Virus record (IMG/VR): IMGVR_UViG_2713896780_000028
DNA: 6,062 bases
Reading direction: 5' to 3' (one strand)
Origin: a virus
Taxonomy: Duplodnaviria; Heunggongvirae; Uroviricota; Caudoviricetes
Both the position numbers and the translations under genes were made by a program. Positions 152 through 6,062 of this stretch are shown in pieces (positions within the stretch are counted from its first letter, which is position 1; each line of letters starts with the position of its first letter). Below the pieces are notes generated by a model. That model did no database searches. It saw only the letters and a program-made list of their open reading frames with translations, and was not told the DNA's origin.

Positions 152-571
152 CTATGATGCGTTTTGTGCTTTCTTTTTACGGATTTCTTCGTAGATCATA
201 TTGTAATACTGTTTTTTCTCTTCAAGAGTTTTTAATAATTTATCCGCTTCACTTTCTGGCAGTTCGTCTAAGAGATCTAAAAAAATACGTTGTCGTGGCG
301 TTAGAACCCTTGTTTCATAACTGGAGGCTGTGTTCGTTGATGATGAAACGATACCATCCATCCATCCCCGGGGTAACCCAAAGGACTCTTCGATAATCTC
401 CACCATATCATCAGCGATCCGTTTTTTTCCCTTTTTCCCCTCTGGGTACAACATTCTTGATACATAAGAAGGCTCGCGCCCGATCTTTCTGGCCACGTTA
501 ACCGCTTTACCATCGCATTTCTCATCACGAATTTTGATGAGTTGCTGTCGTCTAAATTCATATTTGTCCAT
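152..571 (-). CDS. Prophage CI-like repressor, HTH DNA-binding protein (139 aa), no LexA/S24 peptidase domain
   Basis: ORF MDKYEFRRQQLIKIRDEKCDGKAVNVARKIGREPSYVSRML... with an HTH-like segment (AVNVARKIGREPSYVSRML). It is divergent from a Cro-like gene and flanked by repeated palindromic sites. The C-terminus is charged/helical (EADKLLKTLEEKKQYY) rather than a peptidase domain. Confidence 0.7.
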   Translation of the reverse strand: MDKYEFRRQQLIKIRDEKCDGKAVNVARKIGREPSYVSRMLYPEGKKGKKRIADDMVEIIEESFGLPRGWMDGIVSSSTNTASSYETRVLTPRQRIFLDLLDELPESEADKLLKTLEEKKQYYNMIYEEIRKKKAQNAS

Positions 572-606
572 AGGTAAATAATAGATGCGATTACCGCAAG
601 GTAAAC

Positions 607-646
607 AACCTGTGGGTATTGACTTTTGTTTACCTGTGGGTATTCT
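607..646. promoter_or_regulatory. Divergent promoter/operator region between repressor and cro-like gene (putative OR with PR-like promoter)
   Basis: AACCTGTGGGTA (607-618) and TACCTGTGGGTA (631-642), 24 bp apart, related to the 73-84 and 98-109 palindromes. A -35-like TTGACT (619-624) and -10-like TATTCT (641-646) are interleaved with these sites and face the cro-like gene. An AAGGAG Shine-Dalgarno at 661-666 precedes the ATG at 672. Confidence 0.45.
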
Positions 647-671
647 TTGCTGTGTTTACTAAGGAGTAGCT

Positions 672-953
672 ATGGAAGAATTAAGAATATTTCTCAATTC
701 TCTTTCGTCAGATGAACAGCGTATGTTTGCATGCGAGTGTGGTACCAGCATCGGTTATCTAAGAAAGGCATTGAGTAAAGGTCAAGTGTTAGGGGCATCG
801 TTATGTGTCCTTATTGAGCGAGCCAGTAATGGTGAAGTTACACGTCAGCAACTAAGGCCTTTTGATTGGATGAATATTTGGCCCGAGCTGGAAGATACCA
901 AAACGTTAACACAACCACTTTCTAGGAGCTTGATTCATGAAAATCAAGCATGA
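672..953 (+). CDS. Cro-like HTH protein, YdaS family (93 aa)
   Basis: Strong SD AAGGAG 5 nt upstream. Translation contains GTSIGYLRKALSKGQ...IERASNGEVTRQQLRPFDW, resembling the Cro/YdaS-type HTH pattern. It is the first gene of the rightward operon, divergent from the repressor. Confidence 0.7.
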   Translation: MEELRIFLNSLSSDEQRMFACECGTSIGYLRKALSKGQVLGASLCVLIERASNGEVTRQQLRPFDWMNIWPELEDTKTLTQPLSRSLIHENQA

Positions 954-1328
954 ACACATCCGCATGGCGATGAATGCCTGGGCNNNNNNNNNNNNNNNNN
1001 NNNNNNNNNNNNNNNNNNNNNNNNNNNNNNNNNCGACAGCCATCCGGAAGCCCTGGCTCGCAATACCCAGAAAATTTTCCGCTGGGTAGAGAAAGACACC
1101 CCTGATGCTGTTGAAAAAATGCAGGCTCTGTTACCGGCGATCGAAAAGGCGATGCCGCCTTTGCTGGTGGCCCGTATGCGCAGCCACAGTTCTGAATATT
1201 ACCGTGAGATCGTCGAACGGAGGGATCGGCTGGTGAAGGATGTCGATGATTTTGTTGCGTCAGCGGTTGTTTTGTATGACCAGATGAATCGCGGCGGCCC
1301 GGCAGGGAATGCTGTGGTGATGCACTAA
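937..1328 (+). CDS. YdaT-like prophage protein (putative toxin/cell-division inhibitor family), interrupted by an assembly gap
   Basis: ATG at 937 overlaps the stop of the upstream gene by 17 nt (MKIKHEHIRMAMNAW...). After the N-run an open frame from 1035 reads DSHPEALARNTQKIFRWVEKDTPDAVEKMQALLPAIEKAMPPLLVARMRSHSSEYYREIVERRDRLVKDVDDFVASAVVLYDQMNRGGPAGNAVVMH and stops at 1326-1328. The two pieces are in different frames only because the gap length is arbitrary. Confidence 0.55.
984..1033. other. Assembly gap (50 N)
   Basis: Run of exactly 50 N inside the YdaT-like ORF. Confidence 0.95.
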
Positions 1329-1350
1329 AAGCACGGTGTTCGGGGGTTTT

Positions 1351-2319
1351 ATGAGCAGCAAGCTTCATGGTCTTGTCTGGGAAGGGTGCGCCTTCACCGG
1401 CATGATCTTATCCAGGGTGGCGGTTATGGCCCGTCTTGCAGACTACAGCAATGACGAGGGCGTGTCATGGCCTGCCATTGAAACTATCCGGCGTCAGATC
1501 GGTGCAAGAAGTGAATCCACAGTGAAATCGGCTATTGCAGAACTGGCGAAAGAGGGCTGGCTGACGAAGGAAGAGCGTAAGGTCGGTGGGCGTAATGTAA
1601 GCAATATCTATCGGCTTAATGTGGAAAAACTCGAAGCAGCTGCGGCGGCGGCGCGTGAGTCATATAAACCGAAAAGAAAAATTAGCCCGGCAAAAAATGA
1701 CCCGTTAACAGTTGACCCGTCAAATATTGACCCCTCAACGGTTGACCCGTCAAATTTTGATGGATCAACTGTTGATAAAAAACTGCCGATTAGGGGGGCG
1801 ATGATTGACCCCGATCCGTCAGTATTAAAACCTGATCCGTCAGATAAAAGATCTTCTTGTCCGGACGTTTCACTGCCGGACGAAAAACAAGCATCACCGG
1901 TCGAGCGATTTCTGGAGAAACACCCGGATGCGCATACCTGGAATGTACCAAAGCGACAGTGGGGAACCCGGGAGGATTTGACGTGTGCACAGTGGATCTG
2001 GGGACGGGTTGTTGCGTTGTATGAACAGGCCGCCAGTGATGATGGGGAGGTATCACGCCCCAGAGAGCCTAACTGGACGACCTGGGCGAATGATGTGCGC
2101 ATGATGCGTATGCTGGATGGACGTAGTCACCGACAGATTTGTGAAATGTTTGGGCGTGTTCAACGGGATTCGTTCTGGGTAAAAAACATCATGAGTCCGG
2201 CAAAACTCCGGGAAAAATGGGATGAACTGGTTATCCGCCTGGGGCGTTCGCCCGCGCAGCGTTGCGTGAATCATATTTCTGAACCGGATACCGAAATTCC
2301 GCCGGGTTTCAGGGGGTAG
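1351..2319 (+). CDS. Replication initiator, lambda O-like / YdaU-like (N-terminal HTH, iteron-encoded linker, C-terminal domain)
   Basis: ATG at 1351 is preceded by GGGGG (1342-1346); the ORF track's GTG at 1336 is less likely. N-terminus VMARLADYSNDEGVSWPAIETIRRQIGARSESTVKSAIAELAKEGWL is HTH-like. The middle carries a DPxxV peptide repeat encoded by DNA iterons. The stop at 2317-2319 lies 6 nt before the next gene's ATG. Confidence 0.75.
   Translation: MSSKLHGLVWEGCAFTGMILSRVAVMARLADYSNDEGVSWPAIETIRRQIGARSESTVKSAIAELAKEGWLTKEERKVGGRNVSNIYRLNVEKLEAAAAAARESYKPKRKISPAKNDPLTVDPSNIDPSTVDPSNFDGSTVDKKLPIRGAMIDPDPSVLKPDPSDKRSSCPDVSLPDEKQASPVERFLEKHPDAHTWNVPKRQWGTREDLTCAQWIWGRVVALYEQAASDDGEVSRPREPNWTTWANDVRMMRMLDGRSHRQICEMFGRVQRDSFWVKNIMSPAKLREKWDELVIRLGRSPAQRCVNHISEPDTEIPPGFRG
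1698..1775. repeat. Origin-like iteron array: five to six direct repeats with 15-bp period, each containing the dyad TTGACnnGTCAA
   Basis: Units of TGACCCGTTAACAGT / TGACCCGTCAAATAT / TGACCCCTCAACGGT / TGACCCGTCAAATTT / TGATGGATCAACTGT starting at 1698, 1713, 1728, 1743 and 1758, followed by an A-rich stretch (gataaaaaactg). They sit inside the O-like gene, as lambda ori sits inside O. Confidence 0.6.
1805..1850. repeat. Second short direct-repeat pair next to the iterons (GATCCGTCAG, 21 bp apart), each followed by an AT-rich segment
   Basis: gatccgtcagtattaaaa (1813-1830) and gatccgtcagataaaag (1834-1850); possibly part of the same origin. Confidence 0.35.
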
Positions 2320-2325
2320 CGCACC

Positions 2326-3066
2326 ATGAAAAACATTACGTCAGGTGGTGTTCTGGCAAGAGTCAGCAGATTTGTGCCGCAGGATGCAATCCCTCCGTAC
2401 CGTACGGTGGCGGAGTGGCGGGAATGGCAGCTTGCTGAAGGGCGTAAGCGAAGCGAGGAGGTTAATCGTCTGAATCATCAGACGCGGGTTGAAAAAATCA
2501 TTAACCGCTCCGGTATCCAGCCGCTTCACCGGAAGTGTACGTTCGGTAACTACCGGGTGCAGAACGATGGTCAGCGCCATGCCCTGAGTCAGGCGAAATC
2601 CATTGCGGCAGAGCTGGAAGGCGGCTGTACGAATTTTGTTTTCAGTGGCAGGCCTGGCACAGGAAAAAACCACCTGGCGGCGGCTATTGGCAACCACCTT
2701 CTGGCGAAAGGTCGCAGTGTGATTGTGATAACAGTGGCGGATGTGATGCTGGCGTTACATGGCAGCTACGACAACAAAAACTCGGGCGAAAAATTTTTGC
2801 AGGGATTGTGTGGCGTTGACCTGCTGGTACTGGATGAAATTGGCATGCAACGGGATACGCGTAATGAGCAGGTCACGCTGAATCAGATTGTTGACCGCAG
2901 AACGGCATCGTTACTCAGTGTGGGGATGCTGACAAATCTTAACCATGCAGCGATGAATACACTTCTCGGCGAGCGGGTGATGGACCGCATGTCCATGAAC
3001 GGTGGTCGCTGGGTGACGTTTAACTGGGAGAGCTGGCGTCCGAACGTCAGCCAGCACAGGAACTGA
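2326..3066 (+). CDS. DnaC-like helicase loader / phage replication protein (IstB-like AAA+ ATPase, 246 aa)
   Basis: Walker [16 protein letters not shown] and Walker [11 protein letters not shown]-like AGGGGG at 2311-2316. Tightly coupled to the upstream initiator gene. Length and motifs match the DnaC-like proteins of Rac-type prophages (YdaV-like). Confidence 0.9.
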
Positions 3067-3095: not shown

Positions 3096-4026
3096 ATGGA
3101 AACCGTATTGCATGCACTGAAAGCGATGGGTAAAGCCAATTCTGTTGAACTGGCGGCGCGGCTTGATATCAGCCGTGAAGAAGTTCTCAACGAACTGTGG
3201 GAACTCAAAAAAAATGGCGTTGTTGATAAAACGGGTCACACCTGGTTTCTGGCTGGCGAAGGTGAATCCCGGGTAACCGAAGAGCNNNNNNNNNNNNNNN
3301 NNNNNNNNNNNNNNNNNNNNNNNNNNNNNNNNNNNCAACGGGGCGGCTGGCACGCGTTAATCAGAACGGTAAATTTCGTTACTGCATACCGGGCGCTGAT
3401 TTACCGGCAGAGCCGGAAGCTGCATCGGTAACGGAAACCGATAGTAAAGCCTTTCCTCAGCCAACAGGTGTTGCGTTACCAGTCCGGGAAGCGGAAACAC
3501 AGGAAGAAATAAAAACTGAAAGTGTGGCGGTCACAGTGCAGTCACAGCCGTCGTTCACCAGAAAGCATCNNNNNNNNNNNNNNNNNNNNNNNNNNNNNNN
3601 NNNNNNNNNNNNNNNNNNNCAACGGGGCGGCTGGCACGCGTTAATCAGAACGGTAAATTTCGTTACTGCATGCCGGGCGATAATTTACCAGCAGAGCCGA
3701 AAGCCGCGCTGGTAACGGAAAGTGATGGTAAGGCCTTTCCTCAGCCAGCAGGTGCTGCGTTACCAGTCCGGGAAGCCGCAACACAGGAAGAAATTAAAAC
3801 AGAAACTGTGGCGGACATTGTGCAGCCGTTGCCATCGTTTACCGAAACGCAAGCAGATGAGCTGATTTTTCCGTCCCTTCGCAGGGCAAACCTGGCGCTG
3901 CGCAGGGCGAAAAGTGATGTTCAGAAGTGGGAGCGAGTCTGCGCCGCGCTGCGGGAGCTGAACAAGCACCGGGATATTGTTCGACAGATTACTGATTCTT
4001 CCCGCCGTGTTGTATCGGAAAAGTGA
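3096..4026 (+). CDS. Prophage winged-helix protein with internal tandem repeats (recalled as DUF1627-like), interrupted by two assembly gaps
   Basis: SD GGAGG at 3083-3087. N-terminus [54 protein letters not shown] is wHTH-like. After each gap an open frame reads [16 protein letters not shown](I/M)[35 protein letters not shown]... (frame of 3338 and of 3622). The C-terminus ...[41 protein letters not shown] stops at 4024-4026. The frames are consistent with one ORF if each true gap length is a multiple of 3. Confidence 0.6.
3286..3335. other. Assembly gap (50 N)
   Basis: Exactly 50 N, followed by sequence identical to that after the next gap. Confidence 0.95.
3336..3569 (+). repeat. Tandem coding repeat, copy 1 (about 234 bp visible)
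   Basis: The first 52 nt are identical to 3620-3671, then about 85-90% identical through 3853, with a 6-nt indel near the end. Confidence 0.8.
3570..3619. other. Assembly gap (50 N)
   Basis: Exactly 50 N between the two repeat copies. Confidence 0.95.
3620..3853 (+). repeat. Tandem coding repeat, copy 2
   Basis: Begins with the same caacggggcggctggcacgcgttaatcagaacggtaaatttcgttactgcat as copy 1. Confidence 0.8.
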
Positions 4027-4041
4027 TTGCCGGAGGCGCTT

Positions 4042-4455
4042 ATGGCAAAAGTATTTACACAGGAAGAGCGGGAAAAAATTAAAGGGCAGGTTGTTGAGCT
4101 AGTACGCCGGAGTGGGCGCGAGACGTTACGGCAACTGGAAGCCAAGACAGGTGCGACAAGATATCTGATGAGCGTTCTTGCCAGAGAGCTGGTTGCCAGT
4201 GGCGATGTATACAACTCTGGTTACGGGTTATTCCCATCTGAACAGGCTCGTAAGGACTGGCAAAACGCCCGCAAAAAACTATCGAGGGCAAAACTGAAGA
4301 AACCGGTTGTGGTTGATCCTGACCTTATCTGGTCATTACCAGACGGAGAAATACGCCGCTATGACAGGCAATTGAACATAATTTGTAGTGAGTGCCGTAA
4401 CAGTGAAGTGATGCAGCGAGTTTTGATATTTTACACAGGAGTAATGATGGAATAG
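4042..4455 (+). CDS. Hypothetical prophage protein (137 aa), possible small winged-helix domain
   Basis: ATG at 4042 with SD GGAGG at 4032-4036; the ORF-track TTG start at 4027 is less likely. Translation MAKVFTQEEREKIKGQVVELVRRSGRETLRQLEAKTGATRYLMSVLARELVASGDVY... Stop at 4453-4455. Confidence 0.65.
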   Translation: MAKVFTQEEREKIKGQVVELVRRSGRETLRQLEAKTGATRYLMSVLARELVASGDVYNSGYGLFPSEQARKDWQNARKKLSRAKLKKPVVVDPDLIWSLPDGEIRRYDRQLNIICSECRNSEVMQRVLIFYTGVMME

Positions 4456-4806
4456 TGAAAATAACATGAAACCTTTGGATTCTGGTGTTTCAGTGGATGG
4501 GAAAAGAGCAGATACATAGAAAATGAATAGCAATAATTCACAGTCTGGATGTTGTTTGTATGCTTATAAAATGATCCTAGTATGCATTGCCGGAGTTGAA
4601 TCAGCTCCAATGAAGAAACTGAGAGGAGTATTTAGAAGATAGCTAAATGGATGTAATTATTAGTATCTAAAAAATAGTATTTTTGAAATGGGTCTAAGAA
4701 CACAACAATGTACAAATGAGAAGTTATCTTTTAATATGTTCAAAGACCCATTAGGATTGATATCAGTTATGTTAGCTAGATTGATAAAGTGATTACATAT
4801 TTTCTG

Positions 4807-5580
4807 TTATATGCTGAAATGAATAATGCTATTCCAGAGTGCAGCAGAGAAAGTCTCCTGATGATTGAGCTCTGGAAATTGTACAATAGAAAAATTACTG
4901 TATTTTTCTGTCAAAATATTTCTCAAAACAGATTCCGCTTTGATGGCTTCAGGATATAAAGATGCGGAGTAATCAAGGCTAAGATTTCCGTTAAGCAAGC
5001 ATATACTTTTAGTGTGCTTTGATTCTGATATATCATCTTTAATTATCTTGATGATTCTTTCATTCTGCCATAGAAGTGATGGTGCAGATATATAATAATA
5101 GTTAAAGCATGAATTATTTTTTAAGCAATCAAGCACAAAAATAGCACCTAGCGAGTGCCCCCATATACCGATTCTGGAACTGTTCGGAGCAATAGTACTA
5201 ACCCATGGCATGATCTGAGTTAGTAATAATTCTCGGAAAGACTGGCTTCCTCCACCAGTAAAGTAGATCCATGCTGGTTTAGAGTTATCAACAATAGCAT
5301 TTTCACCATCAGGAGTATAATCGTAAGCACGGCGATGAATGCTAAGGTTATTCCAAGATTCATAACCAAGTGTAACTAACACTGGTGGATTGGGTAGTGC
5401 ATCAATAACAGGCAGAATATCAGAAATGTAATTGTTGGCACTATTCCCATCAAGTATATAAAGAGTTGCATTATTTTTTTTAATGTTTTTTGGAGTAAAA
5501 ATACATATTTTATATTTGGTGTCATGGTTAATTGAGTTAAATATGCGTGTTTGACAATGAATGTCCATATGTTTAGTCAT
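4807..5580 (-). CDS. Alpha/beta hydrolase, putative esterase of the Fes/IroD/IroE type (257 aa), no signal peptide
   Basis: SD GGGGAGA 4 nt upstream of the ATG on the minus strand. Motifs: YILDGNS, RRAYDYTP, GGGSQSFRELLLTQIMPWV, nucleophile elbow GIWGHSLGAIFVLD (GxSxG), YYYISAPSL, FPELNHQETF (candidate catalytic His). N-terminus MTKHMDIHCQTRIFNSINHDTKYK has no hydrophobic signal or anchor. Very low GC. Confidence 0.75.
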   Translation of the reverse strand: MTKHMDIHCQTRIFNSINHDTKYKICIFTPKNIKKNNATLYILDGNSANNYISDILPVIDALPNPPVLVTLGYESWNNLSIHRRAYDYTPDGENAIVDNSKPAWIYFTGGGSQSFRELLLTQIMPWVSTIAPNSSRIGIWGHSLGAIFVLDCLKNNSCFNYYYISAPSLLWQNERIIKIIKDDISESKHTKSICLLNGNLSLDYSASLYPEAIKAESVLRNILTEKYSNFSIVQFPELNHQETFSAALWNSIIHFSI

Positions 5581-5591
5581 GCGTTCTCCCC

Positions 5592-5783
5592 ATGAGCATT
5601 AAAGGATGCTTAAGATATGCTATGTCACTGATAAAAAATTTGTTGTGTGTGTTTAGTTATTTTATCTACCTCCATTATGATTTAAGACTGATATATGTTA
5701 TCAGCAAAGGTACATCGTTATTATTTTACCTGTCAATACATTTGATATTGATTATCGTTTACATCGCTTGCTTAGGAAATTGA
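5592..5783 (+). CDS. Possible small hydrophobic protein (63 aa), divergent from the esterase gene; may be spurious
   Basis: ORF MSIKGCLRYAMSLIKNLLCVFSYFIYLHYDLRLIYVISKGTSLLFYLSIHLILIIVYIACLGN. It is an uninterrupted 63-codon frame in stop-rich AT DNA, but has no convincing SD and is low-complexity. Confidence 0.2.
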   Translation: MSIKGCLRYAMSLIKNLLCVFSYFIYLHYDLRLIYVISKGTSLLFYLSIHLILIIVYIACLGN

Positions 5784-6062
5784 AGGCAGGTAACTATCAT
5801 GTCAATGAACTAACCCACAGTCTAACGTACTTCTTTCCCCAATCACCAACAACCAAATTCCTGTTATCACCACTGGGATTTTGGCGCAACTTCATGGTGC
5901 AGAGGTAAATAGCATCAAGCAAAATCTCTTTTTCCGTTGTTGTCCTTATGGGACGTCTGTCTTTCTGACCGATTTCATATTGGCGAGGTAATGGGAAGTT
6001 AAGTAGAATAGCTGCGGGTGCTTGAGGCTATCTGCCTCGGGCATGAACACCAACGGCAGATA

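Follow-up and report, generated by a model that had tools for sequence, protein, structure and literature searches.

The stretch of DNA analysed here, a 6,062-nucleotide (nt) segment of the IMG/VR virus record IMGVR_UViG_2713896780_000028 (Duplodnaviria; Heunggongvirae; Uroviricota; Caudoviricetes) to which we refer in its whole length as the window, carries lambdoid prophage genes in the order repressor, cro/cII-like, O-like, DnaC-like, DUF1627, and DUF977 (Ren-like), followed by a low-GC island and sok/hok; in full genomes sok/hok is succeeded by DUF968, rusA, and Q. Within the island, on the opposite strand and antisense to the phage early-right operon, lies a gene for a 257-residue protein which, as sequence comparisons and a predicted structure show, is a bare α/β-hydrolase catalytic domain of the IroE-like siderophore-esterase family. 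Its counterpart in Escherichia coli O157:H7 Sakai is ECs1077, a 'hypothetical protein' of the lambda-like prophage Sp4 beside yccA. The protein is identical to RefSeq WP_000160654.1, labelled 'alpha/beta hydrolase', and PHROGs gives it a family of its own, phrog_8493, annotated as 'unknown function'. We found no paper on the protein under ECs1077, ECs_1077, NP_309104, WP_000160654, or A0A0D7C0A4, and a search of the literature on prophages and siderophore esterases returned nothing relevant.

The protein is read from an open reading frame (ORF) that starts with ATG and is preceded by a Shine-Dalgarno sequence (Table 1). The probability of 257 stop-free codons in an island of 31–36% GC is approximately 9e-9, and the ORF is therefore not a chance one. 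An earlier interpretation of this DNA, made from its letters and ORFs (the sequence-only reading), had recognized a set of siderophore-esterase motifs in the protein, and all of them can be located in the translation: LDGN (L43–N46), RAYDYTP (R84–P90), GGSQSFRELL (G110–L119), GHSLG (G141–G145), YYISAPSL, and a C-terminal histidine, H240, within ELNHQETF.

Table 1. Features of the esterase gene and the island around it, with positions in the window.
Feature	Position	Strand	Basis or remark
Low-GC cargo island between the DUF977/Ren-like gene and sok/hok	4456–5940	.	GC profile, no terminal repeats
Imperfect hairpin with a 34-nt loop between 16-nt arms of 88% complementarity	4687–4752	−	About 55 nt past the stop codon
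Coding sequence, predicted leaderless IroE-family serine esterase	4807–5580	−	ORF call, phmmer, AlphaFold2/Foldseek, identity to WP_000160654.1
Codon of His240, predicted second member of the dyad	4861–4863	−	Aligns with IroE His287
Codon of Ser143, predicted nucleophile in G141-H-S-L-G145	5152–5154	−	Aligns with IroE Ser189
Codon of Arg84 (RAYDYTP), invariant in 133 relatives	5329–5331	−	Aligns with IroE Arg130
Codon of Asp44 (LDGN), invariant in 133 relatives	5449–5451	−	Aligns with IroE Asp90
Shine-Dalgarno sequence GGGGAG	5586–5591	−	5 nt before the ATG
Sigma-70-like promoter candidate, ATAACA, 16 nt, CATAAT	5674–5701	−	Overlapped by the palindrome at 5688–5704
Fur-box-like site GTAAACGATAATCAATATC	5744–5762	−	Matches the consensus at 15/19 and the 7-1-7 core at 12/14; 164–182 nt before the ATG

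Membership of the PF00756 esterases had also been proposed, with a Pfam search and a structure prediction followed by Foldseek as the means of checking it, and the two checks part ways: the fold and the family are confirmed, but a PF00756 match above threshold is not. The Pfam match is partial (residues 81–161) and scores 17 bits against a gathering cutoff of 22, and a search of the NCBIfam profiles gave zero matches; the relatives that we designate P0020, P0023, and P0024 do carry PF00756. Because the curated profiles are weak, the assignment rests on direct comparison with IroE and other relatives and on the predicted structure. When the PDB sequences are searched with phmmer, the best match is IroE (2gzr; E = 5e-26, query residues 8–253), followed by BES (9e-13), PfeE (1.5e-11), and the fungal EstA/EstB proteins (1e-8 to 1e-3), with a Shewanella 'IroE-like serine hydrolase' also ranked after PfeE; Fes is unmatched in this search even at E<10. 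In a BLASTP alignment with a genuine plasmid-borne IroE, 29% of 254 residues are identical and query residue 8 is paired with IroE residue 52. Scanned exhaustively with HMMER, 1.8 billion representatives yield 998 relatives at E≤1e-3, with no sequence in the interval between approximately 33% and 87% identity.

An AlphaFold2 model built from 133 sequences is a single domain of high confidence (predicted local distance difference test score, 91.0; predicted template modelling score, 0.91). The best 30 Foldseek matches in the PDB consist entirely of siderophore esterases and IroE-like hydrolases with template modelling (TM) scores of about 0.7–0.8, the set including IroE, PfeE, BES, EstA/EstB, and 3gff. 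IroE 2gzs is matched at E = 1.9e-19 (TM 0.79/0.81), BES at 1.6e-18 (TM 0.75–0.79), and PfeE at 1e-18 (TM about 0.8), the three together spanning TM 0.75–0.82. Fes is reached only at about 1e-9, through its C-terminal hydrolase domain, with a target-normalized TM of 0.45 on a chain of 385 residues.

The residues expected to take part in catalysis are well conserved. The 133-sequence alignment shows no variation at D44, R84, and D87 and at least 90% conservation at H142, S143, and H240; Asp90 and Arg130 of IroE, with which D44 and R84 align, are reportedly important for catalysis. When superimposed on the IroE structure labelled with diisopropyl fluorophosphate (TM 0.8), Ser143 and His240 would lie within catalytic distance of each other. 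The sequence-only reading had expected a Ser-His-Asp triad, but IroE uses a Ser189/His287 dyad, and the triad of Fes is Ser-His-Glu (PMC10515146). Because IroE works by a dyad, the spatial arrangement of a triad is not an applicable test of this protein, in which it is the dyad that is conserved, together with the equivalents of Asp90 and Arg130.

The N-terminus is where the protein departs most visibly from IroE. IroE and the closest relatives (P0020 and P0023–P0026) have approximately 48 additional N-terminal residues, a hydrophobic leader or anchor and then a conserved PLGxNIADxGS motif, and the 257-residue protein starts right after the equivalent of this motif, the alignment beginning at about IroE residues 49–52. 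Kyte-Doolittle (KD) hydropathy shows no signal peptide or membrane anchor: the best 19-mer in the whole protein scores 1.2, the N-terminal windows are negative, and the N-terminal KD15 maximum is 0.29, compared with 1.94 for the IroE leader. We considered a hidden upstream leader, in the form of a longer start or an upstream exon, and rejected it; stops close each of the three frames upstream, so that neither a frameshift nor a wrongly called start can have cost the protein a leader. With neither a signal peptide nor an anchor the esterase should stay in the cytoplasm. A lid domain of the Fes type is also absent from this single-domain protein, which Fes matches by its C-terminal domain only.

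The description of the protein as a minimal cytoplasmic catalytic domain, lacking both the anchor of IroE and the extra N-terminal domain of Fes, is thus supported by the hydropathy and the closed frames, although it is not unprecedented, since BES (2qm0) is a 275-residue chain without an added N-terminal domain. A crude hydropathy survey of 136 full-length relatives finds a clearly hydrophobic N-terminus in 85 of them; a minority plainly lack a leader. The leaderless form is therefore unusual in the neighbourhood of IroE, yet not new for the family.

Whether the gene is preceded by a Fur box was a question set before scanning, and the 358-nt upstream region was scored against the 19-nt consensus. 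It contains a Fur-box-like site (Table 1), and a score as good as this is obtained in 0.3% of dinucleotide shuffles of the upstream region and in 1.6% of those of the whole island. The hexamers TTGACA (5731–5736) and TAAAAT (5723–5728) follow the site directly, and Fur binding there could therefore occlude a promoter. Scores were calibrated with the K-12 ent-fep-fes cluster, an iroBCDEN plasmid segment, and two largely overlapping O157 loci that amount to about 70 kb. In the cluster and the plasmid segment every match of at least 15/19 is intergenic and lies in a promoter region beside an iron-uptake or colicin V export gene, those of fepD-entS, fepB-entC, iroB, and iroN among them, and the core score of our site equals that of the control sites. 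Within the 70 kb of O157 DNA, at least 15/19 is reached only at this site and at one other locus of Sp4.

The sigma-70-like promoter candidate is overlapped by a palindrome, CTGATAACATATATCAG (5688–5704, minus strand), that is identical in all 20 of the copies compared, including alleles that have diverged by 9%. We considered the palindrome as a second Fur box and rejected it, its Fur core being only 11/14. A Fur-like site of 15/19 is also found about 150 nt before the start of the Pantoea-type relative P0023 (L026, 3670–3688). The other Sp4 locus has a perfect 14/14 Fur core, TGATAATTATTATCA, between the holin gene ECs_1100 and ECs_1101 (Sakai NC_002695; L006, 26876–26900); it scores 15–16/19 on the long consensus, is absent from the corresponding region of PV15-279, and may represent a second iron-regulated prophage locus.

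Published expression data from strain EDL933 may provide a further link with iron. Z1341, an 'unknown protein of CP-933M', was up 2.5-fold along with entD/E/F, fepC, exbB, and chu genes, and Z1787 (CP-933N), of unknown function, was co-induced with iron-uptake genes and Z1341 on HEp-2 cells (PMC2654852). Z1344 is an endonuclease (PMC2907692), which we matched to rusA (ECs1083) as an anchor; when the ORFs retained in Sakai are counted between this anchor and a second one, Z1324/Z1326 (exonuclease and dicB, ECs1057/1059), Z1341 falls exactly on ECs1077.

We propose, with a probability that we put at roughly 0.55, that the gene encodes a functional, cytoplasmic IroE-like esterase that is made in the lysogen from a Fur-repressed promoter and hydrolyses catecholate trilactone siderophores. 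The esterase would be expressed in the lysogen from a promoter of its own; Fur would repress this promoter, and the enzyme would therefore be produced under iron limitation. It would then hydrolyse, in the cytoplasm, the ester bonds of enterobactin-type siderophores, either the host's own or pirated, that are brought in by the host Fep system (FepBCDG), and so might add to or broaden the work of the host Fes. Fes itself hydrolyses its substrate in the E. coli cytoplasm after import by FepBCDG (PMC8001512; also PMC8891985 for its cytoplasmic location), and BesA hydrolyses ferric bacillibactin in Bacillus (PMC8891985). We also note that the relative P0020 lies within a locus with EntA/EntB, a TonB receptor, and FecCD.

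Several observations weigh against this proposal. The Fur-like site is no more than a match to the consensus, and it lies 164–182 nt from the ATG; it scores 15/19 in two allele groups but 14/19 in a third, and also 14/19 in the near-identical copies L017 and L025. Z1341 is probably ECs1077, but this correspondence comes from gene order and is a lead rather than a proof. Relatives outside E. coli share at most 33% identity with the protein in the HMMER scan, leaving it on an isolated branch, and substrate specificity may therefore have shifted. The best-scoring and closest of these relatives, P0023, is not in a siderophore locus, its neighbours (of Pantoea megaplasmid type) being AzlCD, DJ-1/PfpI, and an acyltransferase. 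O157:H7 is not known to have an iro cluster. Fes is already present in this host, which leaves no obvious call for another enterobactin esterase, and IroE is a poor enzyme on ferric enterobactin, with a kcat/Km of 0.9 compared with more than 90 µM−1 min−1 for Fes (PMC8891985).

The alternative that survives best is that a cytoplasmic esterase with the IroE fold has been recruited to an ester other than a siderophore, its resemblance to siderophore esterases reflecting ancestry only. The isolated branch, the company kept by P0023, the PF00756 score below threshold, and a host already equipped with Fes would all be accommodated by this explanation. It accounts less well for the retention of all of the family-specific active-site residues, for top structural neighbours that are siderophore esterases without exception, for the presence of Fur-like sites upstream of both this gene and its Pantoea-type relative, and for the probable co-induction with iron-uptake genes, and we consider it unlikely.

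A role on newly made siderophore is more doubtful. Here the esterase would linearize apo-enterobactin within the cell, shifting the secreted catecholates to linear dihydroxybenzoylserine oligomers, with no release of iron. IroE, the closest characterized relative, reportedly prefers apo substrates and cuts them once. It is also approximately 100-fold worse than Fes on the ferric form of enterobactin (PMC8891985). However, at 29% identity the kinetic preferences of IroE are not transferable to this protein, and destroying the cell's own siderophore in the cytoplasm looks costly; we therefore regard this explanation as improbable.

The distribution and variation of the gene bear on whether it has any function at all. 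Among 5426 complete E. coli genomes 471 are carriers, and those listed are mainly strains of O157:H7, O26, O103, and O145, together with some commensals from animals; 458 of the copies share at least 99% identity, and the other 13 fall in a 90–95% band. Parts of the 4400–6062 query, which takes in the flanks of the gene, are matched in 2976 genomes. No true carrier was found by tblastn or megablast among 50,697 deposited phage records; the four tblastn matches were rejected as iroE or as bacterial contigs filed in error, and the megablast matches were confined to the hok/sok flank. Similarly, there is no IroE-like protein among the viral structures of BFVD, and a single-protein scan of the representative genomes of 185,579 species found no close relative encoded.

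Comparison with the 91% allele, which comes from a pig isolate and occupies the same slot in a different prophage backbone, gives a nonsynonymous rate (dN) of 0.052 and a synonymous rate (dS) of 0.314, and the resulting dN/dS of 0.165 indicates that the gene is functional; none of the 26 amino acid changes is at a conserved position. In a survey of 20 independent copies (the IMG/VR loci and L004), 19 are intact 257-residue ORFs with D44, R84, D87, S143, and H240 unchanged and one is frameshifted (L024); a truncated variant (P0017) also exists. Identity across copies is 91–93% in the gene and 88–98% in the upstream 250 nt, compared with approximately 77% in the 3′ non-coding flank, and because this flank drifts faster than either, purifying selection maintains both the protein and its upstream region; the adjacent DUF977 gene varies from 74 to 100%. 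These comparisons indicate that the cassette is held by purifying selection, in several phage backbones. IS629/IS1203, insertion sequences of the IS3 family, lie within or beside the gene in several strains, O26:H11 11368 among them, and these insertions and the rare truncations suggest that the gene is dispensable in some lineages.

The same data make it very unlikely that the gene is a decaying remnant, an iroE-like gene deprived of its leader when it was captured and now a passive passenger of a prophage that has spread recently. The near-identity of 458 of the 471 copies could reflect recent spread rather than selection, and the split, frameshifted, and truncated copies also speak for decay; but a dN/dS of 0.165 with a dS of 0.31 across alleles, key residues kept in 19 of 20 copies, a 3′ flank that drifts much faster than the gene, and the combination of a strong Shine-Dalgarno sequence, a clean start, and a confidently predicted fold all argue against it.

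The esterase gene is 34.5% GC (28% at third codon positions) and the island on either side of it 31–36%, compared with 48–54% for the phage neighbour genes, including 48% for the DUF977/Ren-like gene (4027–4455). We looked for terminal direct or inverted repeats bounding the island and found none, so the island is not marked as a transposable unit. Phage HannyBb carries other cargo at the same position, and the slot between the Ren-like gene and sok/hok is therefore a variable moron slot. In backbone comparisons the repressor and the O-like protein differ in length, although members of the 100% allele group have the same DUF977 and island sequence, and the cassette thus rides mosaic prophage backbones. 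The gene is accordingly identified, from its composition and context, as a prophage moron, a low-GC cassette in a variable slot of lambdoid prophages; the suggestion of the sequence-only reading that it is prophage cargo is upheld by the Sp4-type lambdoid context, the deviant GC content, the opposite orientation, and the patchy presence.

Low-GC cargo in prophages of enterohaemorrhagic E. coli (EHEC) is typical of type III effectors. The least probable explanation is that the esterase serves the phage, in phage-host or phage-phage conflict as had also been suggested, or as a secreted or translocated effector: the gene adjoins a Ren-like exclusion gene and a hok/sok module, but it matches zero families of the PADLOC anti-phage defence models at E≤1, has no IroE-like counterpart in BFVD or the deposited phage genomes, has no secretion signal, lies in a nin-like region that is not an effector locus, and is antisense to phage transcription, so that we find no gain in support for conflict and regard this explanation, like decay, as poorly supported.

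A comparison with known systems helps to place the esterase that we propose. IroE (iroBCDEN; PDB 2gzr/2gzs), a hydrolase of the salmochelin and enterobactin trilactones, is the best match in both sequence and structure, and it has in common with our protein a single, lidless α/β-hydrolase domain, the Ser/His dyad, and the residues equivalent to Asp90 and Arg130. It differs in having an anchor and the PLGxNIADxGS motif, in being periplasmic, and in belonging to the iro cluster (seen in L002), whereas the protein described here is leaderless, is the product of a lone prophage gene, and is 29% identical; because the anchor and the cluster are both missing, we prefer the name IroE-like esterase to IroE. 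BES/BesA (PDB 2qm0), a bacillibactin/enterobactin esterase of Bacillus that presumably acts in the cytoplasm, is leaderless and of about 260–290 residues with the same fold, and is our working model for the proposal, although it is only about 20% identical and belongs to a chromosomal, Gram-positive siderophore regulon. PfeE of Pseudomonas and Cee of Campylobacter have the same fold and size, and hydrolyse ferric enterobactin with release of iron; PfeS/PfeR induce pfeE, which adjoins its receptor gene, pfeA (PMC8001512). Both enzymes are, however, periplasmic with signal peptides, and pfeE is not prophage-borne. Fes and IroD, cytoplasmic esterases of enterobactin and salmochelin, share the compartment and the proposed job, and distantly the hydrolase superfamily (Foldseek about 1e-9), but Fes has the N-terminal lid domain and the Ser-His-Glu triad (PMC10515146). 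By analogy, then, the protein would work like BesA or Fes, with a predicted cytoplasmic location, while descending from the IroE/PfeE branch. With other morons of lambdoid prophages the gene shares a GC content that sets it apart, an orientation against the phage genes, promoter-like elements of its own, a place in a variable slot, and occurrence in only some of the related prophages; it differs in that its cargo is a siderophore-esterase homologue.

This is a known kind of enzyme in an unusual carrier, and there is no conceptual surprise in it. Prophages account for much of the difference between EHEC and harmless E. coli, yet most of their cargo genes are 'hypothetical', and the proposal gives ECs1077 a specific and testable role. 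If it is true, the functions of lysogenic conversion would extend to siderophore processing, and the purifying selection on the cassette in prophage backbones of O157, O26, O103, and O145 strains would be explained. A bolder version, to which we give little credence, is that a Fur-controlled intracellular esterase with a specificity unlike that of Fes, acting for example on xenosiderophore trilactones or reshaping the secreted catecholate pool, changes iron piracy by the host. In that event it would be the first phage-borne siderophore-processing enzyme and an unrecognized prophage fitness factor of O157:H7 and other major EHEC serogroups, with lysogeny directly altering iron piracy and gut fitness. 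Should it instead be a generic esterase, the gene would be an ordinary moron.

Some other features of the region can be noted. The hairpin past the stop codon lies in the fast-evolving 3′ flank and may, at low confidence, be a 3′ end or a stabilizer of the transcript; a consensus scan downstream of the gene found no canonical intrinsic terminator. At the other edge of the island, positions 5968–6062 are the start of the sok/hok type I toxin-antitoxin module, with a partial Rfam sok match of 33.9 bits that is cut by the end of the window. This start is 95–100% conserved even where the adjoining island differs, and 5834–5967 is an indel-rich junction. In O157:H7 PV15-279 the DUF977 gene is split by ISEc8 (L001, 17468–19780).

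In the backbone, for which window positions 152–3066 were compared with 7963–11739 of L006, the repressor is 139 residues long in the window and 133 in Sakai Sp4, and the O-like protein 327 rather than 363. The window contains three 50-nt runs of N (984–1033, 3286–3335, and 3570–3619), two of them inside the DUF1627 gene (3096–4026), which for this reason appears as two ORFs. The sequences that follow these two masks form a direct repeat with an offset of 284 nt, approximately 90% identical over at least 160 nt, which suggests an internal duplication in the DUF1627 gene.

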